Below are positions 1 through 64,000 of a DNA stretch of 64,000 bases, piece after piece. The position numbers and the translations under genes are program-made. This stretch comes from Cytophagales bacterium (lineage in GTDB: Bacteria > Bacteroidota > Bacteroidia > Cytophagales > VRUD01), in assembly GCA_019456305.1 (NCBI GenBank), contig VRUD01000012.1, forward strand, positions 3,531 to 67,530. The letters run 5' to 3'. The notes beneath the pieces were generated by a model. It made no database searches. It was not told where the DNA came from and saw only the letters and a program-made list of their open reading frames with translations. The stretch's first letter is position 1; each line of letters begins with the position of its first letter.

Positions 1-82
1 ATTTCCAGATGGGGTTTATTTCTACGTGATCAGCTTTTCAGAATCTGATCATTTTAAAGGCACGGTTACGATACTCCGATAA
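1..82 (+). CDS. 3' end of a CDS entering from the left edge; tail of a T9SS type-B (gliding-associated) C-terminal sorting domain
   Basis: Frame 2 reads ...FPDGVYFYVISFSESDHFKGTVTILR* (stop 80-82). Same ending pattern as the giant adhesin in this window (...PDGTYYYLIKAADKRPKHKWVYVVR*). Confidence 0.55.
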   Translation, partial: FPDGVYFYVISFSESDHFKGTVTILR

Positions 83-173
83 TCGGAATTTGAATCTCGA
101 GTACCCGGGATGAAAGTTTTTAACATATAAAGCTGTATTTTAAATAATCAGATATTGGATATTAGATATTTGC

Positions 174-233
174 CCTACTAATTACGAATTGGCGAATTAC
201 GAATTCGTAATTCGCCAATTCGTAATTGGTAGG
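174..233. repeat. 60-bp near-perfect palindrome built from AATTCGT-type units, centred on GAATTC
   Basis: cctactaattacgaattggcgaattacgaa|ttcgtaattcgccaattcgtaattggtagg; one mismatch (179/228). Ends 41 nt upstream of the Crp/Fnr ATG. Confidence 0.9.
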
Positions 234-273
234 AATTTACGAGCATCTATCAACATCCAATATCATTTTTATC

Positions 274-954
274 ATGGCAACGAACACTAAATTCTGGTAC
301 CTCGAAAATTTCATCTTATTTAGTTGTCTTTCCAAAGATGAAATGGGGGATCTTGCGCAAAAAACAACTATGCGTAACTGCTCAAGGGATAAATTTATTT
401 ACTTTCCTGATGAACCTTCCAGGAATATTTACTTTTTAAAAGAAGGGAGGGTGAAAATCGGTTCATATTCCGAAGATGGAAAGGAAATTATAAAGACAAT
501 TTTACAACCCGGGGAGATCTTTGGAGAATTATCAATAACAGGTGAAGAAAAAAGGAATGATTTTGCTCAAGCCATAGACGATAATGTGATGATATGTGTG
601 ATGAATATGAAGGATATGGAAGAATTGATGGAAAAAAACACCAAATTAGGAATGAGACTTACAAAGCTTATCGGTTTTCGCCTTAGAAAAGTAGAGAGGA
701 GATTAGAATCGCTTATTTTTAAAGACGCCCGCACCCGCATTGTTGATCTCATAAAAGATATGGCGACAGAAGATAGCAAAATGGTAGGCACCGAAACATT
801 GATCATGAACAATCTTACCCATCAGGATATGGCGAAGCTAACTGCCACTTCCCGTCAAACCGTAACCACCGTTCTGAATGAATTGCGTGAAAAAAATCTT
901 ATTTATTTTGACCGGAAAAGGATATTGATCCGGGATATTGGCAAACTGATATAG
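274..954 (+). CDS. Crp/Fnr family transcriptional regulator (cNMP-binding domain plus C-terminal HTH)
   Basis: cNMP-binding-like ...IYFLKEGRVKIGSYSEDGKEIIKTILQPGEIFGELS...; HTH ...LTHQDMAKLTATSRQTVTTVLNELREKNLI. First ATG at 274; the ORF-track start at 226 is a TTG inside the palindrome. Confidence 0.85.
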   Translation: MATNTKFWYLENFILFSCLSKDEMGDLAQKTTMRNCSRDKFIYFPDEPSRNIYFLKEGRVKIGSYSEDGKEIIKTILQPGEIFGELSITGEEKRNDFAQAIDDNVMICVMNMKDMEELMEKNTKLGMRLTKLIGFRLRKVERRLESLIFKDARTRIVDLIKDMATEDSKMVGTETLIMNNLTHQDMAKLTATSRQTVTTVLNELREKNLIYFDRKRILIRDIGKLI

Positions 955-960
955 GCGTTT

Positions 961-1052
961 AGGGCATCTCTAAAAACTACATATTTTTTAAAACACACCC
1001 CTTGCCCCTCTTGATAGAGGGGAATATATGGTGTAGTTTTTAGAGATGCCCT
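961..1052. repeat. 92-bp nested-hairpin element, copy A (copy B at 62288..62378)
   Basis: Outer 21-bp stem agggcatctctaaaaactaca / tgtagtttttagagatgccct, inner hairpin cccctc-ttgata-gagggg. 90/91 identical to copy B. Starts 7 nt after the Crp stop. Confidence 0.95.
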
Positions 1053-1142
1053 TTAGTTAGCGGTCATGCTATGGGAACACTGCAAACTTGGAACTGACGG
1101 ATATAAACCGCAACTTTGCACCGTAATCAAACTGCAATAAAT

Positions 1143-1397
1143 ATGGAACAACTATTAAACATCAACGACATCAAAAAACTTTATCCAGACGAGTGGGTTT
1201 TGATTGGTAATCCTATCATGGACGACAGTAAAATAAATGTTCTGTCTGGCATACCGATATATCACAGCAAAGACCAGAAAGAAGTTTGCTACATCGGCAG
1301 GGAAAAAACGGCTAACTTTGACAAAATCACTTTGGTTTTTACCGGAACATTTAAACCAATAAGAAAGATAACTGGTATTTTCAATCGCATCAAATAA
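1143..1397 (+). CDS. small DUF5678-like protein
   Basis: 84 aa from ATG 1143 (MEQLLNINDIKKLYPDEWVLIGNPI...). The YPDEWVLI-type motif fits my memory of DUF5678. Stop overlaps the next start (TAATG). Confidence 0.55.
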   Translation: MEQLLNINDIKKLYPDEWVLIGNPIMDDSKINVLSGIPIYHSKDQKEVCYIGREKTANFDKITLVFTGTFKPIRKITGIFNRIK

Positions 1398-1786
1398 TGA
1401 CATTTCCATTTGAACGAGACCCCGGCAGCGGACTAATCATTGTCAATACTGAAATTGACGGGAAGTATGAACTGAAGATGGTACTTGACACAGGAGCAAC
1501 CAACACAACTATTAACAGCAACGCATTGTATTTATTGGGTTACGACCTCAAGGATAACATCGGCAAAGTAGAAATTGAAACAGCTAACGGAGTTATAGAA
1601 ACAGAAGTTTTTGAAGTTGGCAGTTTCGATTCTCTTGGACAATCAAAAGACAAATTTCAAATTCAGGTTTACGACTTCTTAGCTCACGGTATTTTTTTTG
1701 ACTACAACGGACTTCTTGGACTGGACTTTTTAGAGGGGACAAAATTTTGCATTGACACGAAGTTAAACACAATAACATTGAGCTGA
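1397..1786 (+). CDS. retropepsin-like (clan AA) aspartic protease
   Basis: Single-lobe size (129 aa) with catalytic motif VLDTGATNTTI and C-terminal GLLGLDFL. Confidence 0.75.
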   Translation: MTFPFERDPGSGLIIVNTEIDGKYELKMVLDTGATNTTINSNALYLLGYDLKDNIGKVEIETANGVIETEVFEVGSFDSLGQSKDKFQIQVYDFLAHGIFFDYNGLLGLDFLEGTKFCIDTKLNTITLS

Positions 1787-1911
1787 TGAAAAATTTGACG
1801 CTTAATTTAAGACGACAGACCTTCGTGAACAGAGCAGCACGAACCGCTTACGAATATTTGTTGAGTACATTCGTAATTCGTGAAAATTCGTAATTTGTAG
1901 GAGATTACAAA

Positions 1912-2727
1912 ATGAAAAACCAGCTTATAGAAGCAGTTCAAAAGCTAAAAGAAAAAGGGATTACAAAACCACAAATCGGTATTGTATTAGGTACAGGATT
2001 AGGAAACCTGATAGAAGAAATTGATATTCAAGTGGAAATTGAATATAAAAACATCCCGCACTTTCCTCTTTCAACGGTTGAAACGCATTCCGGTAAGTTA
2101 ATTTATGGTGATATTTCAGGTAAAAAGGTCCTGGCAATGCAAGGACGTTTTCACTACTATGAAGGATATAGTATGAAACAAATTACTTTCCCGGTAAGGG
2201 TAATGAAACAATCAGGGATAAAATACCTCTTGTTATCAAATGCTGCCGGAAGTATGAATCCCCGGATCAGGAAAGGATCGTTAATGCTCATAGATGACCA
2301 CATCAACCTTTTGCCGGATAATCCGCTAAGGGGATCAAATTTAGATGAACAGGGCCCCCGTTTCCCTGACATGAGTGAACCTTATTCACCACAATTAAAC
2401 GAGAAGCTGGAAAAAATTGCAGATGAAGAAAATATCACATTACACAAAGGCGTATATGCAGCCGTTGCCGGGCCTAACCTGGAAACACGTGCAGAATATC
2501 GCTACCTGCGTGGTATGGGGGCTGATGTTGTAGGAATGTCAACTGTACCTGAAGTGATTGTAGCAAATCATTGCGGGCTGCCGTGTGCTGCCATCTCAGT
2601 GGTCACCGATGAATGTGATCCCGATAACCTTGCAAAAGTAAATATTGAGGAGATCATTGAAACTGCCAATAAAGCACAGGCTAAATTGACAAAGCTGTTT
2701 GTTGGTTTGGTAAAACAAAGAACATAA
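1912..2727 (+). CDS. purine nucleoside phosphorylase (trimeric PNP family, inosine/guanosine type)
   Basis: IGIVLGTGLGNL..., GRFHYYEGYS, LSNAAGS, GPRFPDMS, ETRAEYR, GADVVGMSTVPEV are all typical PNP-I blocks. Confidence 0.9.
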   Translation: MKNQLIEAVQKLKEKGITKPQIGIVLGTGLGNLIEEIDIQVEIEYKNIPHFPLSTVETHSGKLIYGDISGKKVLAMQGRFHYYEGYSMKQITFPVRVMKQSGIKYLLLSNAAGSMNPRIRKGSLMLIDDHINLLPDNPLRGSNLDEQGPRFPDMSEPYSPQLNEKLEKIADEENITLHKGVYAAVAGPNLETRAEYRYLRGMGADVVGMSTVPEVIVANHCGLPCAAISVVTDECDPDNLAKVNIEEIIETANKAQAKLTKLFVGLVKQRT

Positions 2728-2845
2728 TTTTATGAATTAAAATAATGAAACCACTAATTACACGAATTTAACTAATTAAGAATTACACTAATTTAATTTG
2801 TGTAATTCGTGGTTAAACATTGAGATTCCGTTACAAATATCTCTG

Positions 2846-3361
2846 ATGAACACAATTATCTGCCCCTTCTTATTCCTGACAATTTTTAATCTCGCTCTCA
2901 CTGCCTGCTCGCAGAACGATGATCTTGATAAAAAACTAAAAAACATATTAGAATACAGCGTTCCAATTATTAAAGTAGAAGAAGCGCTAACACAGGAACA
3001 AAAGGATAATGTTTATTTTTTAGACACCCGCTCCAATGAGGAATATCTTGTAAGCCACATCCCCAATGCAATCTGGACAGGCTTTGATAAATTTAATATT
3101 CAAAAAGTGCTCGATATTCCAAAGGATGCATTAATTATCACATACTGCTCAGTAGGTTACAGAAGTGAAAAGATCGGGGAAAAGCTGCAGGAATCCGGTT
3201 ATAAAAATGTTTGGAATCTATACGGTGGTATCTTTGAATGGGTAAACCAGGGAAATGAAGTTTATAACAAATTTGACCAACCCACAGATAGCGTGCATAC
3301 TTATAACAGGAGTTGGGCAAAATATTTAGAAAGAGGGATAAAGGTAGTAAGTAGTAAGTAG
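2846..3361 (+). CDS. rhodanese-like domain lipoprotein
   Basis: Lipobox LALTAC; rhodanese core ...FLDTRSNEEYLVSHIPNAI...ITYCSVGYRSEKIGEKL...GGIFEW. ATG at 2846; the longer ORF-track start lies in repeat sequence. Confidence 0.8.
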   Translation: MNTIICPFLFLTIFNLALTACSQNDDLDKKLKNILEYSVPIIKVEEALTQEQKDNVYFLDTRSNEEYLVSHIPNAIWTGFDKFNIQKVLDIPKDALIITYCSVGYRSEKIGEKLQESGYKNVWNLYGGIFEWVNQGNEVYNKFDQPTDSVHTYNRSWAKYLERGIKVVSSK

Positions 3362-3457
3362 TAAGCAGTAAGCAATAGGCAGTAGACAATAGACAGTAGA
3401 CAAAAGACAGTAGACAATAGACAGTAGACAATGGACAATAAGACAATAGATTAATTG
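3343..3457. repeat. heptamer tandem array (GTAGTAA / ACARTAG units), family 'cagtagacaat'
   Basis: ggtagtaagtagtaagtagtaagcagtaagcaataggcagtagacaatagacagtagacaaaagacagtagacaatagacagtagacaatggacaataagacaatagattaattg. Related arrays at 11425-11450, 52985-53045, 53212-53255 (inverted) and 59296-59340. Confidence 0.9.
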
Positions 3458-3518
3458 TTTTTTTTACAGGACGCACCTACGGTGCTTAATTTTTTATTGT
3501 TTTAAATTTTCTTATAAT

Positions 3519-3526
3519 TATCTTTG
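3519..3526 (+). promoter_or_regulatory. candidate Bacteroidota -7 promoter box (TAnnTTTG)
   Basis: TATCTTTG within ttatctttgca, 63 nt upstream of the 3589 start. The same ttatctttgc string recurs at 6525 and 27779, and on the minus strand at 23397. Confidence 0.4.
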
Positions 3527-3588
3527 CATCAATTATCATTCATTATTTTTACTTTTTACTTTTTACTTTTTATAGTGCATTTGGACCA

Positions 3589-4269
3589 GTGAAAGAGCTT
3601 CTGATCATCTTCGTCAAAAATCCTATTAAGGGCAAGGTAAAAACCCGTTTGGCCAAAACGATAGGAGATGATAAGGCTTTGCTAGTTTATCAATCCCTGT
3701 TGAGATATACAAACAGTGTTACAAAAAACATGGGCGTCAGTAAAGCTGTTTATTATTCTGATTTTATCCCTGAAAATGATATATGGACAGATGGAGTTTT
3801 TTTAAAATACTTACAAAAAGGGGAAAACCTGGGTGAAAGAATGAAAAATTCTTTTGAGCTTGCCTTTGAGCAGCATTATCAATCCGTTGTAATAATCGGC
3901 ACAGATTGCCCTACCCTATCCCAAAAGATCATTGAAGATGGTTTTTCTAAACTTAAAATTTTTGATTTTGTCACCGGCCCTGCCACTGATGGCGGTTATT
4001 ATCTTTTAGGGTTGAATGACCGCATACCTGCATGGCGTTCTATCTTACAAAATAAAAAATGGAGTACAAATACCGTTTTTAAAGAAACAATGAATGATAT
4101 TCAGAAATTAAATAAAACAGTCTGTGTTTTACAAAAATTATCAGATATTGATACGGAAAAAGACCTTTACAAATTACGAAGTACGAATGATGAATTCGTA
4201 CTTCATAAGATAAAATCCGAAATTCAAAATCCGAAATCCGAAACCACTAATTACACTAAATTAGTGTAA
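3589..4269 (+). CDS. DUF2064 / TIGR04282-family glycosyltransferase-like protein
   Basis: LLIIFVKNPIKGKVKTRLA..., VIIGTDCPTLS, GPATDGGYYLLGL. GTG start. The last ~20 codons (..KSEIQNPKSETTNYTKLV*) run into the repeat at 4212-4268. Confidence 0.65.
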   Translation: MKELLIIFVKNPIKGKVKTRLAKTIGDDKALLVYQSLLRYTNSVTKNMGVSKAVYYSDFIPENDIWTDGVFLKYLQKGENLGERMKNSFELAFEQHYQSVVIIGTDCPTLSQKIIEDGFSKLKIFDFVTGPATDGGYYLLGLNDRIPAWRSILQNKKWSTNTVFKETMNDIQKLNKTVCVLQKLSDIDTEKDLYKLRSTNDEFVLHKIKSEIQNPKSETTNYTKLV

Positions 4270-4329
4270 TGCTTAATTAGTGTAATTCGTGTAATTAGTG
4301 GTTTCATAATTCATAATTCGTAATTCATA

Positions 4330-4914
4330 ATGGCATACATAAAAATTATTCAGCCTGAAGAAGCCGATAAACGGTTAAAAGAGATTTATCAGGATGTAAT
4401 TAAACGCAGGGGCAAATTAGCTGAAGTTCATAAGGTCCAAAGCCTCAACCCTGAAACTATTGTCAAGCATATAGACTTGTATATGTCAATCATGTATGGG
4501 CGTTCACCATTAAGCAGGGCGCAGCGGGAAATGATCGGTGTGGTAGTTTCTGCTGCAAACCAGTGTACATATTGTATGATACATCATGGCATGGCTTTAA
4601 ACCATTACTGGAAAGATGAGAACAAAGTAGCTCAATTGCGATTAAATCTGTCCCGCCAGAGGCGGGATCAATCCCGGGTACCCGGGTTAAATAAGGTTGA
4701 TAAATTACTTTGCCAATATGCCCGGGATTTAACTAAAGAACCGGACCTGGCTAACGAAGAAAATCATGTTAAACCATTAAAACAAGCCGGCCTTGATGAT
4801 AGGGCAATCCTTGACGCAACGCTGGTAATTGCTTATTTTAATTTTGTCAACAGGATGGTGACTGGGCTGGGAGTTACGTTGGAGGAAGAAGAAGCGGGAG
4901 AGTATAAATATTGA
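4330..4914 (+). CDS. carboxymuconolactone decarboxylase / AhpD-like peroxidase-related enzyme
   Basis: AhpD-core CxxC-type block ANQCTYCMIHHG and C-terminal ...ILDATLVIAYFNFVNR. Contains an in-frame GC-rich hairpin pair at 4651-4686. Confidence 0.7.
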   Translation: MAYIKIIQPEEADKRLKEIYQDVIKRRGKLAEVHKVQSLNPETIVKHIDLYMSIMYGRSPLSRAQREMIGVVVSAANQCTYCMIHHGMALNHYWKDENKVAQLRLNLSRQRRDQSRVPGLNKVDKLLCQYARDLTKEPDLANEENHVKPLKQAGLDDRAILDATLVIAYFNFVNRMVTGLGVTLEEEEAGEYKY

Positions 4915-4942
4915 GTAGTGAACGGTTAGACAATCTTTTTTT

Positions 4943-6340
4943 ATGAATATTTCAAAACTATCTGTTTTTTCATTGCTCTCTATATTGATCTATACCAGCA
5001 GTTGCAAAACCATAAAACCCCAACGCCCCGAAAGCTCAACCTTTACAAAAACCCCTGCAAAAGAACTATCCGTTATCAATCTCCCTGTTGAATACGCTCT
5101 GCTAAATATGGAAAAAGAAATTAACGAAGCGTTTCAGGGTGAGATTTACAGAGATGACAGCTTTGAAGATAATGAAGGCGACAATCTTATGGTAAGGGCC
5201 TCCAAAATAGAAGCTATTACCTTATCAGCAAAAGGAAATGTGATCAGCACTGATATTCCGTTGCATATTTGGTGTAAGGTTCGCTGGCAGGAGAAAATAC
5301 TGGGAATTAAATTAACCAAAATCGCAGAGACCGATTTTGACATTGTATTTAAATTTAACACCCAATTTAATGTTGATAAAAAATGGAACTTAATTACCAA
5401 AACCGCATCAAGTGGGTATGAGTGGATTAAAAAACCGCTCATAAAGCTCGGGCCAATACATATCCCTGTTACAAACCTGATAGAAGATGTGATCAAAGAA
5501 AAAATGGATGAGGTGGCAAAGGAAATTGATGATGATATAAAAAATTCATTTGATGTAAGAGCGTATATAGATAGTCTTTGGTTAAATATTCAAGAACCCA
5601 TATTGATCAATGAAGATTATAACTTATGGTTAAAATTAGAACCTGTAAGTTTTGTTATGACCCCCATAAAAGGCTGGCAGAAGAAAATTTACCTCAATTT
5701 TGGGATCAATACATCGCTTGAAATCGTAACGGGAAAAAAACCACTTTATATTGTCAATACCTCACTTCCGGACCTGATGATCAGAAAGGATATTGATAAA
5801 AAATTCCATCTGGTGTTGGCAGCAGAGATCTCCTATGCCGATGCTTCTAAGCTGATGTCCGATAAGATGATCGGGGAGGTTTACGAATTTAAAAATAAAA
5901 AAATAAAAATTGAAGCGGTAGATATCTATGGCAGTGGTAAAGACCTTATTCTAATGCTTGACTTTTCGGGAGATATTAAAGGCACGGTCTATTTCAGTGG
6001 TTTGCCGGAGTATGATTCATTAACCAGTACAATATCAATTGAAAGCTTTGATTTTGATGTAAAGACTACAAAAGCATTGCTTAAATTAGCAGATTGGCTC
6101 CTTCATGCAGGTTTCAAACATAAGATCAAAACAGCGTTAAAATTCCCGCTAAAAGACAAAATTTCCGAAATAAATCAATTAATTGAAAGCAGCATCAAAA
6201 GCAATCAGATAGGAGAATCTATTATATTGAATTGTGATATCACTGATATATTTCCCAAAGAAATATACCTTACTCCCGAGGCTATTAAACTGATGTTAAT
6301 CATAGACGGGGAGGCGCAGTTACTAATAAAAGATTGGTGA
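4943..6340 (+). CDS. lipoprotein of unknown function (possibly DUF4403 family)
   Basis: Signal/lipobox ...LIYTSSC; 465-aa uninterrupted ORF. The family name is from memory only. Confidence 0.6.
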   Translation: MNISKLSVFSLLSILIYTSSCKTIKPQRPESSTFTKTPAKELSVINLPVEYALLNMEKEINEAFQGEIYRDDSFEDNEGDNLMVRASKIEAITLSAKGNVISTDIPLHIWCKVRWQEKILGIKLTKIAETDFDIVFKFNTQFNVDKKWNLITKTASSGYEWIKKPLIKLGPIHIPVTNLIEDVIKEKMDEVAKEIDDDIKNSFDVRAYIDSLWLNIQEPILINEDYNLWLKLEPVSFVMTPIKGWQKKIYLNFGINTSLEIVTGKKPLYIVNTSLPDLMIRKDIDKKFHLVLAAEISYADASKLMSDKMIGEVYEFKNKKIKIEAVDIYGSGKDLILMLDFSGDIKGTVYFSGLPEYDSLTSTISIESFDFDVKTTKALLKLADWLLHAGFKHKIKTALKFPLKDKISEINQLIESSIKSNQIGESIILNCDITDIFPKEIYLTPEAIKLMLIIDGEAQLLIKDW

Positions 6341-6345
6341 AAAAA

Positions 6346-6394
6346 CGCATAGAGCATAGCGCATAGCGCATAGAGCATAGAGCATAGCACATAG
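6346..6394. repeat. (RGCATAG)x7 heptamer array
   Basis: cgcatag agcatag cgcatag cgcatag agcatag agcatag cacatag, starting 6 nt after the stop of the 4943..6340 CDS. Puts TAG in all three frames. Confidence 0.95.
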
Positions 6395-6400
6395 TGCCAT

Positions 6401-6431
6401 AACCCCGCACTTAAATTTATGTGCGGGGTAA
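6401..6431 (+). terminator. stem-loop after the 4943..6340 CDS (possible terminator, no clear U-tract)
   Basis: aaccccgcac-ttaaatttat-gtgcggggt; 9-10 bp GC-rich stem. Confidence 0.35.
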
Positions 6432-6524
6432 CAAACAACCATTAACTAATAACTAAACACTAAACTACTTAATTGCTTTATATGTTTTACAACTTGACCT
6501 AAGCAGATAGGCAGTTAATTTTAT

Positions 6525-6532
6525 TATCTTTG
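6525..6532 (+). promoter_or_regulatory. candidate -7 promoter box (TAnnTTTG)
   Basis: TATCTTTG only 5 nt upstream of the ATG at 6537. This argues that the real start of the downstream gene is further in (6618). Confidence 0.35.
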
Positions 6533-6601
6533 CATAATGTTAAAACACCTCAAAAACGCAGAGCGCAAATCGCATAGCGGTGAACCCCGCCTGTGGCGGG
6601 G

Positions 6602-6637
6602 CCATGCTCTATGCTCTATGCGCTATGCGCTATGCGC
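6602..6637. repeat. (CTATGCK)x5 heptamer array, inverted relative to 6346..6394
   Basis: ccatgct ctatgct ctatgcg ctatgcg ctatgcg, preceded by hairpin ccccgcctgtggcgggg (6586-6602). Puts ATG in all three frames. Confidence 0.95.
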
Positions 6638-7268
6638 TTTATTTATTATTACTTCAGCGAAGTGTCATAGCCAATCCTTTAAGATCGCCAAGTTCAAATA
6701 CAATGGCGGGGGCGATTGGTATGCTAACAAAACCTCTCTGCCTAACCTGATCGCATTTTGTAATAAGAACCTAAAGATGAACATTGCTGCTGAGGAAGAT
6801 ATTGTAGAAGCAGGCAGTCAGGAATTATTTTCATATCCATTTGTACATATGACAGGCCATGGTAATGTGGTATTCTCAAAACAAGAAGCATACAACCTGA
6901 GAAAATACCTTATAGGCGGAGGCTTTCTCCATATTGATGATAATTACGGGCTGGATAAATTTATCCGGGTGGAAATGAAAAAGGTTTTCCCTGAACTGGA
7001 TTTTGTGGAGCTGCCTTTTGATCATCCTATCTACCATCAGAAGTATAATTTTCCAAAAGGTTTGCCCAAAATCCATGAGCATGACGGCAAGCCGCCACAA
7101 GGGTTTGGCCTGATCTATGAAGGACGCCTCGTTTGCTTTTATTCATACGAATGTGACCTGGGCAATGGCTGGGAAGACCAGGTTATTTATAATGATCCTG
7201 AAGAGATAAGACGACAAGCACTGAAAATGGGAGCCAATATTCTCTCATTTGCGTTGACCGATTATTAG
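6618..7268 (+). CDS. DUF4159 domain protein
   Basis: FKIAKFKYNGGGDWYANKTSLPNL...YPFVHMTGHGNVVFSKQEA..LRKYL..GGFLHIDDNYG. I prefer the start at ATG 6618 (MRYALCALFIITSAKCHSQ, signal-like). The maximal ORF begins at 6537. Confidence 0.75.
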   Translation: MRYALCALFIITSAKCHSQSFKIAKFKYNGGGDWYANKTSLPNLIAFCNKNLKMNIAAEEDIVEAGSQELFSYPFVHMTGHGNVVFSKQEAYNLRKYLIGGGFLHIDDNYGLDKFIRVEMKKVFPELDFVELPFDHPIYHQKYNFPKGLPKIHEHDGKPPQGFGLIYEGRLVCFYSYECDLGNGWEDQVIYNDPEEIRRQALKMGANILSFALTDY

Positions 7269-7301
7269 GAGGCTTTGCAAAACTCAATTGAAAACAAAAA
7301 A

Positions 7302-8144
7302 ATGTTATCAAAAAGAGCCAAAGACCTTATCAAACTCGCAAAGAATCCCAAATTTATATCAGGGATCTACAATTATTGCGACCGCTGGTGCGAAAAATGT
7401 CCAATGACCTCTAAGTGCCTGCTTTATGCCCAGGAAAAGGAAGAAATGAGCGATACTGATGTCAATGATATGGAAAATGAAAAATTTTGGGAAAAAATTC
7501 ATACAAATTTTGAGATGGTAAGGGAAATGATAGAAGAAGATGCCAAAAGACTGGGAATAGACTTGGATTTAAATGATCCTGAGTTGGAAGAGATATCAAA
7601 AAAAGAGGAACTTAAAGAAAAAGAAGCCGAAAACCATGAACTCTCCGGGGCTGCTATGAAATATTCAGAAATGGTAGATGTTTGGTTTAAAAATGAAAAA
7701 AAGCTCTTCGAGCAAAAGAGCGATGAATTGATCACCAATGTAAAAATTGGCCTGGACGAAAAAAAGGTACTTACGGAAGCTACTGAAATCGCTGATGCCA
7801 CAGAGGTGATCCGCTGGTACCAGCACCAGATATTCGTGAAACTGATGCGCGGGTTAACGAATGATGATGACCTTTTTGACGATTTTGAAGAAGACCTAAT
7901 CCAGAACGATGCGAATGGTTCTGTAAAGGTTGCTTTGCTGGGAATAGATCGCTCTATTGGCGCCTTTGAAACGCTGCGAAACTATTTCACTGAAAAAAAC
8001 GACTCTCTGCTGGATTTCCTCATTCACCTCGATCGTTTAAGGCGGAAAACCGAACAACATTTTCCCAATGCGCGAAAATTTATCAGAGCAGGATTTGATG
8101 ATGATTCGGATAAAGGGATTTTGGAAGTAGGAAAGAAGAAGTAA
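7302..8144 (+). CDS. hypothetical protein with N-terminal Cys cluster (CDRWCEKCPMTSKC)
   Basis: 280-aa ORF from ATG 7302, acidic and helical-looking. No family recognised. Confidence 0.6.
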   Translation: MLSKRAKDLIKLAKNPKFISGIYNYCDRWCEKCPMTSKCLLYAQEKEEMSDTDVNDMENEKFWEKIHTNFEMVREMIEEDAKRLGIDLDLNDPELEEISKKEELKEKEAENHELSGAAMKYSEMVDVWFKNEKKLFEQKSDELITNVKIGLDEKKVLTEATEIADATEVIRWYQHQIFVKLMRGLTNDDDLFDDFEEDLIQNDANGSVKVALLGIDRSIGAFETLRNYFTEKNDSLLDFLIHLDRLRRKTEQHFPNARKFIRAGFDDDSDKGILEVGKKK

Positions 8145-8150
8145 ATTAAG

Positions 8151-8241
8151 CATGGCGCATAGCGCATGGCGTCCACCCTCATTCAAGCTCTTTTTCCCCG
8201 CCAACTGGCGGGGCCATGCGCTATGCGCTATGCGCTATCGC
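8151..8241. repeat. GCATAG-family inverted repeat with central hairpin
   Basis: catggcgcatagcgcatggcg ... ccccgccaactggcgggg (8196-8213) ... gccatgcgctatgcgctatgcgctatcgc. The last codons and the TAG stop of the aminotransferase (..AIAHSA*) are made of repeat units. Confidence 0.9.
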
Positions 8242-9684
8242 TCCCAAAATAACTTTACACGCTTCTTTGATCTCTTCTTTTGTAATAATTAAAGGCGGTG
8301 TTATTCTCATAGCGCTGTCACAGTAAAGAAACCAATCAACAAAAACCCCGGTGGTGTCAGAAACCCTACCTGACTGTTCCGTATTTCTCGGGGAGATACA
8401 TTTATCAATGATAGATTTTAATTGATCATAAGATTCAAACTGAAGCGCCATCATCAGTCCTTTACTTCTGATAGCCTTGATTTTGGGATGTGCTAATAAT
8501 TCGATGAATAGTCTTTCTTTTTCCGCTACTACAGCCCCCCCCAACCCCCCCGAAGGAGGGGCTTTGCCAACGCTTTTGCCAGCCCCCCCTAAATCCCTCC
8601 TGCCACTATTTCTTACCGAATCGGTGAATGGGTGAATGGGTGAATCGGTGAATCGCTTCGTTTTCCTGTTCTCCGTTTCTCCGATTCTCCGGTTCTCCGA
8701 TTCAGGGGGGCTTGGAGTTAGAGGGGGGAGGGGGGGGCTGGCAGTTGGGCTGATTAGTTCCAAAGAAGCGAGCCCTGCAGCACAGCAGACGGGATGACCA
8801 CCAAAAGTAGTGATATGTCCTAAAACAGGATTGGTTTTTAAGACAGACATAATTTCCTTTGAAGAGATAAAAGCGCCAAGCGGCATACCCCCTCCGATCG
8901 CTTTGCCGCAGCATAAAATATCCGGCACAACGTCAAAATGCTCAAAAGCAAACAGCAATCCTGTTCTGCCAAAGCCTGTTTGAACCTCGTCAAAAATTAG
9001 AAGTGTGCCCGACTCGCTGCATTTGTTTCTCAGTGTTTTTAAATATTCTTTGTCAGGTATTATTACACCCGCTTCTCCCTGGATGGGCTCTATAATAACC
9101 GCTGCAATTTTATCTGTGATATATTCCAGATCTTCAGTGTCATTGAATTTTATATGTCTTACCTCCGGTAATAATGGCCTGAACGCTCTTTTAAACACTT
9201 CGCTCCCGTTTAATGATAAGGCGCCATGCGTAGAACCGTGATAGGCATTTTGAAGTGAAATAATTCCAGTTCTGCCGGTAAATCTTTTGGCTAATTTTAT
9301 CGCCCCTTCTACCGCTTCACTACCGGAATTAACAAAATAGGTGCATTCTAATTGAGCAGGAAGATTTTCAGCAAGCTTTTTGGCAAGCATTACCTGTGGC
9401 GTTTGCACCAATTCTCCGTAAGCCATCAGGTGAAGATATTTATCAAGCTGCTCCTTGATCGCTTTTATAACTTCTGGATGACGGTGGCCTACATTATTCA
9501 CGCCAATCCCGGATATCAGGTCTATGTACTTTTTCCTACTTGCCCCGCTTGTCCCGGTCCTATCGGGTTTTTTGGGGGCTTTTCCAAACATATATACTCC
9601 TTCTGCGTAGTCAATCTCAAGCATAGAAGGAAAATCAGAAGTTTGGGCTAAATGGTTCAGGAAATCTTGTTTTATTGTGTTCAT
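8221..9684 (-). CDS. class-III (acetylornithine/GABA-type) PLP aminotransferase carrying in-frame repeat insertions
   Basis: ISGIGVNNVGHRHPEV, FVNSGSEAVEGAIKLA, LIFDEVQTGFGRTG, CCGKAIGGGMPLGAF, GGHPVCCAAGLA. ATG at 9684. Repeat-derived segments at 8530-8757 and 9543-9567. Confidence 0.85.
   Translation of the reverse strand: MNTIKQDFLNHLAQTSDFPSMLEIDYAEGVYMFGKAPKKPDRTGTSGASRKKYIDLISGIGVNNVGHRHPEVIKAIKEQLDKYLHLMAYGELVQTPQVMLAKKLAENLPAQLECTYFVNSGSEAVEGAIKLAKRFTGRTGIISLQNAYHGSTHGALSLNGSEVFKRAFRPLLPEVRHIKFNDTEDLEYITDKIAAVIIEPIQGEAGVIIPDKEYLKTLRNKCSESGTLLIFDEVQTGFGRTGLLFAFEHFDVVPDILCCGKAIGGGMPLGAFISSKEIMSVLKTNPVLGHITTFGGHPVCCAAGLASLELISPTASPPLPPLTPSPPESENRRIGETENRKTKRFTDSPIHPFTDSVRNSGRRDLGGAGKSVGKAPPSGGLGGAVVAEKERLFIELLAHPKIKAIRSKGLMMALQFESYDQLKSIIDKCISPRNTEQSGRVSDTTGVFVDWFLYCDSAMRITPPLIITKEEIKEACKVILGAIAHSA
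8583..8744. repeat. 162-bp GC-rich palindromic element, intragenic copy A (copy B at 27238..27399)
   Basis: About 158/162 identical to 27238..27399. Built from C-run/G-run termini and 8-mer arrays (GGTGAATS)x4 and (CTCCGNTT)x3 that can pair. Confidence 0.95.
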
Positions 9685-9700
9685 GTATTTGTGTGTTAGT

Positions 9701-9740
9701 GTGTTCACGTGAGCACTTGAACATATGAACACGTGAACAC
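9701..9740. repeat. CACGTG-containing palindrome (gtgttcacgtg ... cacgtgaacac)
   Basis: 17 nt upstream of the aminotransferase ATG. A related 85-bp palindrome lies 10 nt upstream of the MuiA-like gene (48632..48716). Confidence 0.85.
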
Positions 9741-9763
9741 TTATTTAAGGGAATGATGTTGAT

Positions 9764-55038: not shown

Positions 55039-55157
55039 AACTATATAAATTGATTAAAAAGTAATATAGCCACTAATTATTTCTATAATAAATAAATTCG
55101 TGAAAATTAGTATAATTCGTGGCTAAACATTGAAATTCCGATACTAAAAAATCAGTC

Positions 55158-55724
55158 ATGAGTACATTAAAGCAAAAAAAACTTTTTGAAAGAAATCAAA
55201 GAATCTGTAAACAGATTTTAAGCGGTAAACACCTTACCAAAGTTAATAAAGAATTCGGATTAACCTACACTAGAGTACAACAGATTTTATCTGAAAAATT
55301 CAATATAAGCTATCAGGACATACTCAAAGAAAGAAGGCAAAAATTATTTCAGCATCGCCTTAAATTAATAACTGAAAAAGCTAAAGAATTAGGAAGAATA
55401 CCAACCCGAAGAGAAATGAGCAAAATTTTCGGTATAGTGGGCTCTCGTCATATTTCTTATGCAAAAATTCTAAAACAAAAAGGTTATCAGTACGCAAAAA
55501 AAGGTTCATCATCAAACCGAATAGATGACGAAGCATTATTACAATATCTTAAAGATCTATCCAACCGGCTTGGCAGAACTCCTGGTGCTAAAGATATTAA
55601 CAGGGGCCAAAAATTTTCTCATCTAAGCTATTATAATCATTTTGGCTCTATTACAAAAGCCCAAAAGTTAGCAGGGCTAAAACCCAACAAAAGGGGTTAT
55701 ACTTCAAATATTTTTAAAAAATAA
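55158..55724 (+). CDS. small basic protein with N-terminal HTH-like segment and two homing-endonuclease-associated (HNH_repeat-like) repeats
   Basis: ..KELGRIPTRREMSKIFG.. and ..LSNRLGRTPGAKDIN.......YYNHFGSITKAQKLAGLKP (GRtP...FGSw..A...AGL pattern). Confidence 0.55.
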   Translation: MSTLKQKKLFERNQRICKQILSGKHLTKVNKEFGLTYTRVQQILSEKFNISYQDILKERRQKLFQHRLKLITEKAKELGRIPTRREMSKIFGIVGSRHISYAKILKQKGYQYAKKGSSSNRIDDEALLQYLKDLSNRLGRTPGAKDINRGQKFSHLSYYNHFGSITKAQKLAGLKPNKRGYTSNIFKK

Positions 55725-57015: not shown

Positions 57016-57020
57016 AAGAA

Positions 57021-57100
57021 GTTGGCAGTTGGCAGTAGGCAGTTGGCAGCAGGCAGTTGGCATAGGGTAGAAGATGGTAATACGGTAATACGGTAATATG
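57021..57100. repeat. tandem heptamer array (GTTGGCA-type x6) followed by (GGTAATAC)x3
   Basis: gttggca gttggca gtaggca gttggca gcaggca gttggca; ggtaatacggtaatacggtaatatgg. Confidence 0.9.
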
Positions 57101-58202: not shown

Positions 58203-59300
58203 TTGGAAAAAAATATTCTAATTACCGGAGGTGCAGGTTTCATCGGCTCGCACGTAGTAAAACTGTTTGTCAATAAATATCCTCACTACAAGATATTTAA
58301 CCTGGACAAGCTTACATACGCTGGTAATCTTGCCAACCTTAAAGATATTGAAGAAGTACCCAATTACACATTCATTAAAGGCGATATAGCTGAACCTTCT
58401 TTTATTGATGGCCTGTTTGGTAAATATAAGTTTAATTCAATTATTCATTTAGCGGCCGAGTCCCATGTTGACAGATCTATCGTCAGCCCGATGGATTTTA
58501 TTCAAACAAACATCATCGGGACAGTGAATCTGTTAAATGCAGCAAGGCAAATATGGGAGAAATACTCCACTATTAGCCAAAACCTTGAATCAAAAACCCG
58601 GAACCCGAAACCCGAAACCCGAAACTTGTTCTATCATATTTCCACAGATGAAGTCTACGGATCATTAGATGATAGCGGATTTTTCATTGAATCTACTCCT
58701 TACGATCCCCGTTCACCCTACTCTGCTTCAAAAGCCAGCTCTGACCATTTTGTAAGGGCTTATCATAATACCTATAAATTGCCGTTCGTGATCTCCAATT
58801 GCTCTAATAATTACGGACCTAACCAGTTTCCTGAAAAGCTAATTCCACTATGCATCAATAACATTAAGAATAATAAACCGCTTCCAATTTATGGTAGGGG
58901 TGAAAATATACGTGACTGGCTATATGTTGAAGACCATGCAAGGGCGATTGATTTGATTTTCCATAAAGGCAATGTTGGAGATACCTATAATGTAGGTGGT
59001 GTAAATGAGTGGAAAAATATTGACCTGATCAGGCTTCTTTGCAGGATAATGGATAAAAAGACCGGACGGCCTGCAGGAAGTTGTGGCAGTCTGATCACTT
59101 TTGTAAAAGACCGTCAGGGGCATGACCTTCGCTACGCTATTGATGCTTCTAAAATCATGAATGAATTGGGGTGGAAACCATCTCTGAAATTTGAAGCAGG
59201 CCTTGAAAAAACGGTTGACTGGTATTTAGCAAATCAGCAGTGGCTGGAGAGTGTTACTTCAGGCGCTTATCAGAAGTATTACCAGGAGCAATATGGGTAG
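58203..59300 (+). CDS. rfbB: dTDP-glucose 4,6-dehydratase, with an in-frame heptamer-repeat insertion
   Basis: ILITGGAGFIGSH.V......YP.Y.I.NLDKLTYAGNL.NL; HLAAESHVDRSI; HISTDEVYGSL; PYSASKASSDH.VRAY; SNCSNNYGP.QFPEKLIP. Apparent TTG start. Repeat at 58594-58625. Confidence 0.9.
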   Translation: MEKNILITGGAGFIGSHVVKLFVNKYPHYKIFNLDKLTYAGNLANLKDIEEVPNYTFIKGDIAEPSFIDGLFGKYKFNSIIHLAAESHVDRSIVSPMDFIQTNIIGTVNLLNAARQIWEKYSTISQNLESKTRNPKPETRNLFYHISTDEVYGSLDDSGFFIESTPYDPRSPYSASKASSDHFVRAYHNTYKLPFVISNCSNNYGPNQFPEKLIPLCINNIKNNKPLPIYGRGENIRDWLYVEDHARAIDLIFHKGNVGDTYNVGGVNEWKNIDLIRLLCRIMDKKTGRPAGSCGSLITFVKDRQGHDLRYAIDASKIMNELGWKPSLKFEAGLEKTVDWYLANQQWLESVTSGAYQKYYQEQYG

Positions 59301-59508
59301 TAAGTAGACAGTAGACAGTAGACAGTAGACAATTGACAAAAAAAAGAGACAGCAGGGAATGGCTTATAGTTTTAACTGTGACTATTTACTAATTTACAAT
59401 ATCTAATTTTCCACATGAGCCTGAAGAAATTCAGGTTTATAAATTCAATAATTCAACTTTAAATTCGTATATTCGCATATAAGATTATATAAATATAAAA
59501 ACATTTTG

Positions 59509-62278: not shown

Positions 62279-62287
62279 AAAAGCATT

Positions 62288-62378
62288 AGGGCATCTCTAA
62301 AAACTACATATTTTTTAAAACACACCCCTTGCCCCTCTTGATAGAGGGGAATGTATGGTGTAGTTTTTAGAGATGCCC
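62288..62378. repeat. nested-hairpin element, copy B, in the sucA-sucB spacer
   Basis: 90/91 identical to 961..1052 (single a/g difference). Confidence 0.95.
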
Positions 62379-62397
62379 ATTATTTAATAAAAAAACT

Positions 62398-63642
62398 ATG
62401 AGCATAGAAATAAAAGTCCCAACCGTAGGCGAATCCATCACAGAGGTCACCGTAGCAAACTGGATGAAAAATGATGGAGATTACGTGGAATTAGATGAAA
62501 TTTTGTGTGAATTAGAATCAGATAAAGCTACTTTTGAGCTGAATGCAGAAGCTGCAGGCCTTTTACATATTATAGCTAAGGAAGGTGATACGCTGGAGAT
62601 CGGAGCAATTATTTGCAATATAGATACGGATGTTTCAGCTAAACCTAAGGAGAAAGCTTCTCAAACTGAACCTGCAATACCTGTAGAAACTCAACCAGCT
62701 ATTCAAAAAGATACCCCTGATCTCCCTGAAAAAACAGAAAAGGTTGTTGAAACTGCTGAAGTTGCAGGAAAGAGCAATTATGCTGCAGATCATCCATCCC
62801 CTGCTGCTGCTAAAATTTTAGATGAAAAAGGTATGAAACCTGGAGAGGTTGATGGAACCGGTAAAGACGGCAGAATTACTAAAGAAGATGCCATAAAAGC
62901 CGAAAAGCAGCCAGCAACAAGTACCCTACATCCGGCATTCAACCGCATCGAAAGACGTGAAAAAATGTCAAGTTTCCGGAGAACCATTTCCAGAAGGTTG
63001 GTCGCAGTAAAGAACGAAACTGCCATGCTCACCACCTTCAATGAAGTGAATATGAAGCCTATTATGGATCTGCGAAAAAAGTACAAAGAACCATTTAAAG
63101 AAAAATATGAGGTAGGCCTGGGTTTTATGTCGTTCTTTACCAAAGCCTGTTGCCTGGCGTTGCAGGAATTTCCTGCGGTAAATGCGATGTTAGATGGAGA
63201 CGAGATCATTTATCATGACTTTTGCGATATTTCTATTGCAGTATCAGCCCCAAAAGGATTGGTGGTTCCTGTAGTAAGAAATGCAGAATCTTTGAGCTTT
63301 GCAGAAATAGAGAAAGAAATTGCAGATCTGGCTGCCAAAGCAAGAGACAACAAGATCACCATTGAAGAGATGACCGGTGGAACATTCTCAATTACAAACG
63401 GAGGTGTGTTCGGCTCCATGATGTCAACCCCCATTCTCAACCCGCCTCAATCTGCTATCCTGGGTATGCACAATATCGTTGAAAGGCCCGTTGCCATAAG
63501 TGGCGAAATAGAAATCCGCCCCATGATGTTCGTAGCATTGTCATACGATCACAGGATCATTGATGGCAGAGAGTCTGTGAGTTTTCTGGTGAGGGTGAAA
63601 GAGCTGCTGGAGGATCCTGCGAGGTTGTTGTTGGGGATTTGA
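62398..63642 (+). CDS. sucB: dihydrolipoyllysine-residue succinyltransferase (E2 of 2-oxoglutarate dehydrogenase)
   Basis: Lipoyl domain ..[11 protein letters not shown]; PSBD ..SPAA.K...E.G......GTGK.GRITKED; catalytic ..[16 protein letters not shown]. Confidence 0.95.
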
Positions 63643-63680
63643 TTTTTTGGGGGATAAAAATCATTATTACGAGGACATAG

Positions 63681-63739
63681 GCGTGCCACCCCCGAGTAGA
63701 GACGCCCAATTTGGTCGTCTCTACTCGGGGGTGGCACGC
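63681..63739 (+). terminator. 24-bp-stem hairpin after sucB (same family as 19254..19300)
   Basis: gcgtgccacccccgagtagagacg-cccaatttggt-cgtctctactcgggggtggcacgc. Confidence 0.5.
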
Positions 63740-63800
63740 TTGGTTAATATCTTAATAATTTTTTGTATATTTGAAAAAAATAATATAAAAATGTTTAACT

Positions 63801-64000
63801 ATGTTACCTACCCAAACCATAAAATTAGATAAAGAGCAGTTGCATTTCCTCAAAAGGCATAAAGAATATGGTTTTCATAGTGAAAGTGAATTATTGCGAT
63901 TTGCCCTTGAACTCTTTAAAAAAAAAATCAGCAAAAAAAATGAATTAATAAAATCTGCTGATTTATATGCAGAATTGTATGAAAAAGATAAAGAAACGCA
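63801..64000 (+). CDS. 5' part of a small antitoxin-like (ribbon-helix-helix/CopG-like) ORF running off the right edge
   Basis: MLPTQTIKLDKEQLHFLKRHKEYGFHSESELLRFALELFKKKISKKNELIKSADLYAELYEKDKET... Open to the window end; not in the supplied ORF track because no stop is reached. Confidence 0.45.
   Translation, partial: MLPTQTIKLDKEQLHFLKRHKEYGFHSESELLRFALELFKKKISKKNELIKSADLYAELYEKDKET

Follow-up and report, generated by a model that had tools for sequence, protein, structure and literature searches.

The DNA considered here, hereafter the window, is the whole analysed stretch of 64,000 nt, positions 3,531 to 67,530 of contig VRUD01000012.1 in the assembly GCA_019456305.1 of a Cytophagales bacterium. 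Its GC content is about 39%, and open reading frames (ORFs) that can be assigned to Pfam families occupy about 87% of it. Among their products are markers of gliding Bacteroidota, namely SprB, CHU_C, PorP/SprF, GldH and four Por_Secre_tail proteins. SucA of the window is at most 66% identical to any protein in the one-genome-per-species GTDB, and its best 80 matches are all from metagenome-assembled genomes (MAGs) of uncultured Bacteroidota/Bacteroidia, such as Ca. Pollutiaquabacter. The host is an uncultured gliding member of the class Bacteroidia. The subject of this report is the short tandem arrays of 7- and 8-nt units and the GC-rich palindromes found between, and sometimes within, these genes. 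These are probably slippage-prone arrays like the short tandemly repeated repetitive (STRR) sequences and long simple sequence repeats (LSSR) of other bacteria, joined with palindromes like repetitive extragenic palindromic (REP) sequences and miniature inverted-repeat transposable elements (MITEs). Insertion and copying would have taken place at the DNA level, and selection would have left the elements at gene boundaries and in tolerant loops.

First, the arrays are far more abundant than expected by chance. Tandem Repeats Finder (TRF) gave 101 rows in total for the window. Rows of period 7 number 30 against a mean of 2.0 in 20 dinucleotide shuffles run with the same settings, and rows of period 8 number 19 against 1.85; periods 14, 16 and 21 are likewise above the shuffles. 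After merging, the period-7/8 arrays form 49 blocks of 1690 nt altogether. Their coverage is 118 nt per kb in spacers and 13 nt per kb in ORFs, a difference of about 9-fold, and many of the "coding" arrays fall in ORF extremities or start-codon extensions. An array is present in 16 of the 32 spacers of at least 40 nt, and an array and/or a strong hairpin in 22 of the 32. Folding with z < -3 against shuffles was found for 17 of 33 spacers and for none of 30 coding controls. About 60% of the arrays have an inverted partner within 400 nt, and 101 inverted-repeat pairs lie within 250 nt of each other in the window. An earlier note, made by reading the sequence, had reported about 15 recurring families of words and palindromes, which is a fair count (about 15-20), and every cited example that was checked was located by TRF at its position or within a few bases of it. 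It had also stated that nearly every spacer carries such repeats and that inverted pairs let each spacer fold into a long hairpin. The strong excess and the frequent pairing are confirmed, but "nearly every" and "each" overstate the proportions just given. The GC-rich palindrome CCCGAGTACTCGGG has 9 matches with at most 2 mismatches where 0.04 are expected, 7 of them in spacers; no match to it occurs in 203 retrieved loci. The polysaccharide cluster at 51.6-59.3 kb is the richest part of the window in arrays. Polar growth of arrays was considered and dropped, as there is only a weak asymmetry, with an array-like neighbouring unit in 51% against 34%.

The arrays and hairpins are given below by position. 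The strand is stated where one was assigned, I with a number denotes an inverted repeat, and z is the folding score of the spacer.

150-233: three AGATATT units followed by a perfect palindrome (174-233, 30+30 nt) made up of AATTACG/CGTAATT units; the Crp-family gene lies just downstream; I13, 97% complementary with 0 nt between the arms; z = -13.2; AATTCGT array at 176-231 (TRF).
959-1059, plus strand: 101-nt hairpin element, copy A (GGGCATCTCTAAAAACTAC...GTAGTTTTTAGAGATGCCC), 8 nt past the stop of gene 274-954.
2741-2814, plus strand: 74-nt palindromic element, copy 1, with the words ACTAATTACAC/ACGAATT; I24; self-BLAST.
3344-3450, plus strand: array of about 15 units grading from GTAGTAA through GCAGTAA to ACARTAG (ACARTAG array at 3373-3450; TRF), with the TAG stop of ORF 2798-3361 inside it.
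3546-3572, plus strand: TTTTTAC x3.9, perfect (100%), 16 nt upstream of ORF 3589; TRF.
4212-4331, minus strand: AAAATCC array, inverted copy of the 74-nt element (4242-4311) and TTCATAA array; I11, I19; spans the C-terminus and stop of ORF 3589-4269 and reaches the start of the next gene.
6346-6432, plus strand: RGCATAG x7 (6346-6394), then core hairpin CCCCGCAC-N10-GTGCGGGG; 6 nt past the stop of ORF 4943-6340; I5, the arm pairing with 6601-6638.
6553-6640, plus strand: composite hairpin with a GCAGAGC/GCAAATC/GCATAGC arm, core CCCCGCC-TGT-GGCGGGG and inverted arm (CTATGCK)x5, which contains in-frame ATGs and reaches into the 5' part of the DUF4159 ORF (6537-7268); RGCATAG array at 6604-6638 (TRF).
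8150-8242: RGCATGG/RGCATAG arm, core CCCCGCC-AACT-GGCGGGG and inverted arm between convergent genes; z = -7.8; the right arm contains the TAG stop of the minus-strand aminotransferase gene.
8580-8744, plus strand: 165-nt MITE-like element with G/C-rich termini, GAATCGGT x4.8 (TRF array 8618-8655) and imperfect inverted arm TTCTCCGA x4.4.
9668-9945: GTGTTCA/TGAACAC palindrome (9668-9740) and inverted ATACGAAT/ATTCGTAT arms (9780-9820, 9900-9945) in a divergent promoter region; I18; a module of about 40 nt is common with 15264-15458.
9987-10000: REP-like palindrome CCCGAGTACTCGGG; further copies at 12763, 48788, 48909 and 54994, degenerate copies at 96, 4673, 26946 and 28387.
11406-11445, plus strand: degenerate AGTAGAA/AGTAAGC/AGTAGAC/AATAGAC array, 3' of two GC hairpins that follow ORF 10042-11331.
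14261-14293, minus strand: GTATCAA/TACTTGA (TCAAGTA) array x4.7, 7 nt past the stop of ORF 14300-15253; its sense strand carries TGA.
15264-15480: inverted arms of ATACGAAT words flanking a CCCGCAAATATGCGGG hairpin, between divergent genes; I7, I14; z = -7.5.
19245-19309: GC-rich palindrome of 32+32 nt (CCCCGAGTGGTAGAGACG...) between cheR and cheB; I12; a relative of it lies at 63681-63739 (I16); z = -13.2 and -11.0 for the two.
23890-23922, plus strand: AAACCCG x4.6, inside the minus-strand 1347-aa ORF.
27235-27399, plus strand: second copy of the 165-nt element (TRF array of GAATCGGT at 27273-27310), in frame in the 1347-aa ORF for an amidase/CUB/FN3 protein of the type IX secretion system (T9SS).
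48640-48868: GTGTTCA/AACACAT palindrome, followed by GTTGGCA arms at 48759-48820 and 48852-48890 (TRF array 48759-48868), which a CCGAGTACTCGGG insert interrupts, with a terminator-like hairpin in the loop; z = -11.2.
51046-51228: RGCATAG x11.6 and an inverted arm x4, upstream of or overlapping the 5' end of minus-strand ORF 50325; I9, I17.
51442-51604: TTAGTTT/TGGTTAT arrays and inverted AACCATA/AAACTAA arrays, period 7/21, upstream of ugd; I2, I22.
52936-53271, plus strand: AAGGAAAT array across the ugd stop, ACARTAG arm at 52992-53037 and inverted arm at 53214-53246; the arms bracket the entire spacer up to the next start codon; I1, 58-nt arms; z = -6.3.
54883-55042: nested hairpin with outer arms GAGTCCACTCTAAAAAGT/ACTTTTTAGAGTGGACTC, inner arms CGCAAAG/CTTTGCG and a CCCGAGTACTCGGG insert; z = -7.1.
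57020-57098, plus strand: GTTGGCA x6 (57020-57066), then GGTAATAC x2.9 (57076-57098), 5 nt past a stop; no inverted partner was found for this array.
58594-58626, plus strand: AAACCCG x4.6, inside rmlB (dTDP-glucose 4,6-dehydratase).
59297-59338, plus strand: AGTAGAC x4.1 with 100% matches (ACARTAG array at 59303-59338; TRF); its first TAG is the rmlB stop.
62286-62386, plus strand: 101-nt hairpin element, copy B, filling the sucA-sucB spacer.

What recurs in this list is a module in which tandem units form the 5' arm and their complements the 3' arm, with a short GC-rich core hairpin between them. Long-range arms may also bracket a whole spacer, as do 6351-6388 with 6601-6638 (95% complementary) and 52970-53027 with 53214-53271. 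Modules are nested as well: the small palindrome CCCGAGTACTCGGG/CCGAGTACTCGGG splits the GTTGGCA arm at 48788 and again lies inside the CGCAAAG hairpin at 54994. Several pieces are present twice, at unrelated places in the window:

959-1059 and 62286-62386: 101-nt hairpin, 97% identity (self-BLAST).
8580-8744 and 27235-27399: 165-nt element, 97.6% identity.
2741-2814 and 4242-4311, inverted: 74-nt element, 88% identity.
3418-3467 and 53197-53246, inverted: 50 nt of array end with its unique flank, 98% identity.
6594-6626 and 8206-8238: 33 nt of core hairpin and arm, 94% identity.
23890-23922 and 58594-58626: 33 nt of AAACCCG array, 97% identity.

Since modules larger than a word recur at unrelated sites, slippage in situ is not sufficient by itself to explain them. 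MITEs are non-coding elements of 50-500 nt that have terminal inverted repeats and occur as several near-identical, dispersed copies; in the same way, the 165-nt, 101-nt and 74-nt elements are dispersed pairs that can form hairpins. An active or recently active generator, as supposed in the earlier note, is supported by modules at 97-98% identity, by arrays that are 100% perfect and by independent gains in the sucA-sucB spacer of relatives, described below. In the explanation that we favour, arrays of 7-8 nt units would grow and shrink by replication slippage, as is presumed for STRR and LSSR, and GC-rich REP-like palindromes and MITE-like hairpins of 70-170 nt would be copied between loci and insert into each other. 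The two kinds together would give rise to the composite modules of array, core hairpin and inverted array. Candidates for the copying activity are a hairpin-recognising transposase encoded elsewhere in the genome, and recombination or template switching between copies.

It is extremely improbable that the repeats are assembly artefacts, the possibility that the earlier note had set against its own observation. Short-read contigs from the same sample do break at the repeats (L002 in 959-1059 and in 2741-2814, L203 in the 165-nt element), and one scaffold differs by a 182-nt junction, though not at an array. However, two other assemblies of the sample (SAMN11268109 / SRR8799001) match the window at 100% identity in 1029-3016 and 3199-8666, including about ten arrays. 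The ORFs stay open and in frame through arrays, or have their stops inside them, and their architecture recurs in related MAG loci (80), metagenome contigs (at least 120) and viral contigs of IMG/VR. As for the differing scaffold, scaffold_4437 at ENA (L203 1-60) joins 3016 to 3199, so that 182 nt of a rhodanese ORF (3017-3198) are missing, and its junction lies at a GTTTAT/GGTTAT microhomology. Either the assembly is chimeric at this point or the population contains a deletion variant.

The arrays are closely associated with the ends of genes. At 10 of 14 stop-side spacer boundaries, an array overlaps the boundary or lies within 7 nt of it, whereas 2.3 are expected under random placement of each array in the spacer that holds it (simulation, P < 5e-5). 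Four ORFs have their stop inside an array: 2798-3361, 8221-9732 (minus strand), 51632-52945 and 58203-59300. At the other end of genes, the CTATGC arm, which has no stops, extends into the 5' ends of two ORFs, 6537-7268 and 50325-51245, and offers them in-frame ATGs. The segment MRYALCALFIIITSA... at such repeat-overlapped 5' ends would, by its translation, read like a signal peptide. The listed starts at 6537, 51245 and 226 extend their ORFs through stop-free repeat arms. It had been proposed that the arrays act as stop barriers in all frames. The arithmetic is right, and the arrays at ORF ends agree with it, but the words GTTGGCA, AAACCCG and GAATCGGT contain no stop and four arrays are translated within ORFs. 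In the window, the stop-bearing arm comes first in 5 arm pairs, the two arms are equal in 2, and it comes second in none. A general rule of this kind was rejected: for words other than GCATAGC, relatives have 3 stop-first and 5 stop-second pairs, and the locus L005 has a pair in which CTTTGCG is first. Because several families are stop-free, some arrays are translated, and stop-bearing arms in relatives are second as often as first, we take the stop content to limit the places in which arrays are tolerated, and not to be their purpose. Under the favoured explanation, the present layout would be the residue left by purifying selection and deletion bias. Arrays bearing TAG, TAA or TGA could adjoin or replace the 3' end of an ORF, and would be tolerated there because a period of 7 nt puts a stop in every frame. 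The complementary CTATGC arm, without stops and with ATG in every frame, could overlap a 5' end, and stop-free words such as GAATCGGT and AAACCCG could survive in frame in tolerant protein loops.

Both copies of the 165-nt element are in frame in minus-strand ORFs, one for a class-III aminotransferase and the other for the 1347-aa secreted amidase, and both add the same peptide of about 52 residues. Alignments of the aminotransferase with solved homologues stop where the element is inserted, at residues 327-328. The insert in the aminotransferase is 83 aa long, since the shared element is accompanied by an extra G/C-rich piece at 8536-8580 (insert region 8536-8790), and this piece resembles a second, partial element end. 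The ORFs that host the element stay open, and the predicted proteins would have a Pro/Ser/Arg-rich loop encoded by the repeat. A protein search with the 52-aa insert gave no match. The AAACCCG array of rmlB is read as KTRNPKPETRN and falls in a variable surface loop, which is 5 residues longer than in the closest solved homologue. Similar cases are seen in relatives. Arrays of AAAGTTC/AAACTTTC lie in the inter-domain linker of sucB (E2) at L022 13069-13097, L040 13181-13216 and L066 13107-13138 and are translated (KVQSLKVES...). At L039, AACCATT arrays at 6854-6886 and 9549-9580 are inside ORFs, at least one of them in an E2-like linker. Tandem repeats seem to have been recruited as flexible linkers, which recalls the report on tandem repeats of Borgs (10.1101/2022.05.18.492195).

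Arrays within genes raise the question of phase variation. Unit lengths that are not a multiple of 3 are the classical design of contingency switches, and a subset of the arrays could be such switches, in which gain or loss of a 7- or 8-nt unit frameshifts or re-spaces genes for surface structures. This would suit the arrays inside rmlB, which belongs to the O-antigen/rhamnose pathway, and inside the gene for a surface protein secreted by T9SS, as well as the concentration of arrays in the polysaccharide cluster. Most arrays, however, follow the stops of housekeeping genes, where a change in length would do nothing, and one of the arrays in ORFs is in an aminotransferase gene, so that we regard phase variation as improbable.

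The same architecture is found in relatives with different words. In the relative L011, (GTTCAAA)n and (CTTTGAA)n enclose CTTCGTAG-ACAC-CTACGAAG, and in a second module a GC hairpin stands between (AATAACG)n and (CGTTATT)n. At least one period-7 array is present in roughly half of 80 related loci. With 2.97 period-7 arrays per 10 kb, the window stands near the top of the range (median 0.44 in these loci), but it is not unique, since one relative reaches 3.08. At L065, inverted heptamer arrays (14215-14281 and 14693-14747) flank a small ORF, which by eye looks like a four-helix-bundle gene of the kind encoding 23S rRNA intervening-sequence proteins, and this points to array hairpins as possible borders of small cargo genes.

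One family extends far beyond these relatives. A scan of JGI metagenomes for (GCATAGC)x3 found at least 120 contigs, and IMG/VR added 11 more. Among the matches listed, the contigs range in GC from 0.34 to 0.70 and several have Shine-Dalgarno sites, so that many taxa carry the family. Among the same matches, an inverted (GCTATGC)-type arm lies within 300 nt at 22 of 108 non-redundant loci and is downstream in every case (22:0). Gene boundaries within 40 nt are also distributed unequally in these matches, with 52 (30 stops and 22 starts) on the 5' side of the GCATAG strand and 14 on the other side. The L005 pair with CTTTGCG first, whose words are related to GCATAGC, has the opposite polarity. 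Three viral contigs of IMG/VR (L208, L209 and L211) have an identical order of TAA, 12 nt, (GCATAGC)3, a 7-nt loop, a GCTTTGC-type arm, AGGAGG and ATG, and in the viral contigs L215 and L221 the ACAGTAG arrays begin exactly at stop codons. The polarity may reflect compatibility with ORF ends, as one arm carries TAG and the other ATG and no stops, or it may reflect descent from a mobile ancestor.

A more specific proposal is that (GCATAGC)n-loop-(GCTATGC)n is a gene-boundary module of fixed polarity, found across phyla and carried by phages, which would be spread by a so far unrecognised mobilisation system specific to its hairpin or kept by a conserved intercistronic function. Its 5' arm may give the upstream gene stops in all frames, and its stop-free 3' arm may give the downstream gene an ATG in all frames. 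The proposal rests on the 22:0 polarity, the 52 against 14 boundaries, the position between phage structural genes and the ORFs of the window that end or apparently start in the arms. A selfish repeat explains these four observations only partly, and even so we consider the proposal unlikely to be correct.

The arrays also bring to mind periodic binding sites. HutP is a ring protein that binds UAG-N4 repeats, and the arrays could likewise be sites for an RNA- or DNA-binding regulator, either HutP-like or of the kind proposed for translational regulation by TAACTGA repeats. The two commonest families of the window, RGCATAG and ACARTAG, do place a TAG every 7 nt. Sense GCATAG follows stops and CTATGC precedes starts in the boundary counts above, the same word is used at GC contents of 34-70% and in viral contigs, and regulatory roles have been proposed for heptamer repeats (PMC4679880; 10.1101/2022.06.06.494920). 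On the other hand, at least 15 words coexist in 64 kb and differ again in each relative, so that many binding specificities would be needed. Moreover, copy number and spacing are irregular, the words occur in both orientations as hairpin arms, and no gene for HutP, TRAP or a similar protein was found in the window. Such regulation is improbable as an explanation.

Whether the hairpins act as RNA was judged first at one orthologous spacer, that between sucA and sucB. Of 54 relatives in which sucA and sucB are adjacent, 32 have a spacer of at most 32 nt without structure. In at least 7 others the spacer measures 45-270 nt and holds strong array hairpins particular to the lineage; seven have spacers of 67-267 nt with z <= -4 and lineage-specific arrays. 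In the window, the spacer is 119 nt long, consists mostly of the 101-nt element and has z = -7.7. By this comparison, the spacer is ancestrally short, and the hairpins at this site represent repeated gains and not a conserved signal. Several other properties were compared with what a functional RNA would require. For 23 elements with a known direction of transcription, the summed minimum free energy is -1225 kcal/mol for the sense strand and -1299 kcal/mol for the antisense strand, and copies inside ORFs fold worse by 15-20 kcal/mol in sense. Since the sense RNA folds no better, the palindromy is strand-symmetric, as expected of elements that act at the DNA level. Stem-loops followed by a T-run are not enriched (17 sites against 15.2 expected, and 12 against 14.3), and only a few repeat hairpins have a T-run (3473-3485, 48825-48847 and 9986-10001). 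With Rfam, at gathering and at permissive thresholds, no family was found for the repeats; only tRNA-Arg reaches threshold, and the matches below it are to models of miRNA precursors, that is, generic long hairpins. The Bacteroidetes promoter pattern TTTG-N17-23-TAnnTTTG has 8 matches against 4.2 expected, which cannot place the arms relative to transcription starts, and a sigma-70 promoter scan is not applicable to this phylum.

These results bear on the idea that the array hairpins are functional RNA, in which intercistronic stems would serve in terminating or insulating transcription, as substrates of RNase III or in the protection of 3' ends. The length and strength of the stems would suit such roles, as would their position, which in the window, in metagenome contigs and in viral contigs such as L208 is exactly the gap from a stop to the following start or ribosome-binding site. 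With GCATAGC the stop-bearing arm is always first, so that terminating ribosomes would stay out of the stem, and at least 7 relatives gained a sucA-sucB hairpin independently. However, the hairpin is not required between sucA and sucB, given the short spacers of the other relatives, and the sense strand has no G-U folding advantage. Copies inside ORFs, terminator-like sites at chance frequency and the lack of an Rfam family also speak against such a role. In addition, most GCATAGC arms are no more complementary to their own partner than to arms of other loci (17.9 against 17.0), a weak test to which we give no weight, since it is biased by the ascertainment of the loci. A dedicated RNA function is unlikely, and the shared role in RNA processing, stability or insulation suggested earlier finds no support. 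Taken together, the tests favour selfish or neutral DNA over a dedicated RNA function and are compatible with secondary effects. If the RNA hairpins do influence mRNA stability, processing or read-through, this would be a by-product or have been co-opted later.

For copied and selection-filtered DNA, the explanation that we prefer, several points are unfavourable. No transposase, REP-associated tyrosine transposase (RAYT) or other mobilising candidate, including Y1_Tnp, was found among the ORFs of the 64-kb window, and a scan of its unannotated ORFs with NCBIfam gave no candidate generator gene. When the two 165-nt copies were aligned with their flanks, no clear target-site duplication was seen, on the basis of two copies per family. 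The analysis covers one strain, which keeps empty/filled-site polymorphism and variation in array length out of direct view, and the comparison of orthologous spacers concerns the single spacer between sucA and sucB. Finally, both the fixed polarity of GCATAGC across very different genomes and the tight placement of arrays at stops and starts in many taxa and viral contigs are poorly explained by a purely neutral model and could reflect function.

The earlier note had called the density and regularity of these repeats unusual for a bacterial genome. This is true in comparison with chance and with most relatives, but the kind of repeat is known. STRR are heptanucleotide repeats of heterocystous cyanobacteria, with words such as CCCCAGT, TTGGTCA and CAACAGT. 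None of these three words equals a TRF unit in the window and the host is not a cyanobacterium, so that the arrays are not STRR in the strict sense. They agree with the general features of STRR and LSSR, an excess of head-to-tail arrays of short units (5-11 nt, mostly 7 nt) that is mainly non-coding. According to the summary in PMC4679880, heptamer arrays dominate the LSSR of some bacteria (Mrazek 2007). In the window as in STRR and LSSR, 7-nt units dominate, are overwhelmingly non-coding, comprise many words above chance level and have a sporadic phylogenetic distribution, with slippage as the presumed generator. The differences are the Bacteroidota host and the arrangement of the arrays as arms around a GC-rich core, anchored at stops and copied with unique flanks. 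MacGregor (2015; PMC4679880) described intergenic direct repeats of TAACTGA in Beggiatoaceae, Cyanobacteria and five Bacteroidetes, noted "other heptamer direct repeats" in the same spacers, and left their origin and role open while proposing translational regulation; a preprint on Nostoc calls the role of heptamer repeats "not very well worked out" (10.1101/2022.06.06.494920). TAACTGA repeats resemble the present arrays as heptamers with stops in all frames beside gene boundaries and in their patchy spread across phyla. However, they are mostly sets of 2-6 copies directly upstream of starts, and inversion is very rare among them, with a single indirect repeat in that genome, whereas the arrays of the window use different words, mostly follow stops and form inverted pairs.

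The palindromes can be compared with REP sequences, bacterial interspersed mosaic elements (BIMEs) and REPINs, all mobilised by RAYT transposases (PMC3116915, PMC2817692, PMC8266576). Common features are GC-rich extragenic palindromes in high copy number (CCCGAGTACTCGGG), inverted doublets as long hairpins, nested or mosaic elements, a position just after stops and a fixed polarity from outer to inner. Unlike REP and REPIN, the stems consist of tandem 7-8-nt units instead of one conserved palindrome of about 20 nt, and no RAYT was seen in the window. REP palindromes carry a conserved GTAG on their 5' side. In the window a GTAG is found 5' of core hairpins within ACAGTAG and GTAGTAA units, and ATAG within RGCATAG; the CCCGAGTACTCGGG copies have no fixed GTAG flank. 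Other possible counterparts are MITEs and the Rickettsia palindromic elements (RPE), of which RPE insert in frame into ORFs, and the small dispersed repeats (SDR) of Nostoc, reportedly described by Elhai and co-workers in 2008 (cited in PMC3116915). Features in common with the present elements are non-autonomous, near-identical hairpins of 70-170 nt, in-frame positions in unrelated proteins and tiny palindromes within arrays. They differ in that the sequence families are unrelated and the arms here are internally periodic, and in the window no target-site duplication or parent insertion sequence was identified. Integron attC sites were considered for GTTGGCA/TGCCAAC and rejected, as by eye the words do not fit RYYYAAC/GTTRRRY. 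The repeats of the window fit known kinds. Less familiar is that periodic arms around cores, modular copying, anchoring at stops and the polarity of GCATAGC occur in combination.

Cyanobacteria and giant sulfur bacteria are the hosts from which the STRR/LSSR phenomenon is best known. These observations extend it to an uncultured lineage of Bacteroidia, in which the arrays are the arms of nested and copied hairpin elements instead of free-standing microsatellites. There are practical effects: short-read assemblies shatter at the elements, gene callers extend ORFs through stop-free arms, and proteins gain inserts or termini encoded by repeats. The comparison at sucA-sucB is a concrete reason to think that hairpins of this kind can exist without a function. 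The fixed polarity and the use of GCATAGC across phyla offer a cheap, testable lead on how heptamer repeats spread, a question left by MacGregor (2015).

Some other features of the window were recorded. At 13995-14224, between two minus-strand genes, four copies of CCATCAGAGTCYCC form two nested long hairpins with z = -7 (arms 13995-14042 with 14177-14224, and 14070-14116 with 14141-14187); they have no match in Rfam and are either a MITE or an unknown structured RNA. A direct repeat of about 75 nt (TTCCTAAAATGTCCTRATTT...TTTGGAAATAATG), which is not of the heptamer type, is present in two copies at 23356-23460, upstream of a Fic-domain gene. The 84-aa ORF at 21742-21996 corresponds only to the N-terminal, Walker-A part of an ABC ATPase and is a gene remnant; it sits in a 315-nt "spacer" that separates two minus-strand genes. 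A small ORF with the HNH_repeat domain associated with homing endonucleases (55158-55724) lies within the polysaccharide cluster, and a gene for a putative endonuclease of the Uma2 family (33587-34114) precedes that for SprB. The two may be mobile or selfish genes, and no evidence ties either to the repeats. The listed ORF 30997-32349 overlaps tRNA-Arg(ACG) at 32313-32389 on the same strand, and because of this overlap its start codon is taken to be mis-called. The regions 1-90, 34549-46989 and 46994-48622 are ordinary for the phylum; they include the SprB-repeat gliding adhesin of 4146 aa with a CHU_C sorting domain, and the window starts inside another C-terminal domain of the CHU_C type. 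The SprB adhesin gene also contains DNA repeats of 225 nt, at 37810-38243 and 41538-42239, with 70-73% matches.

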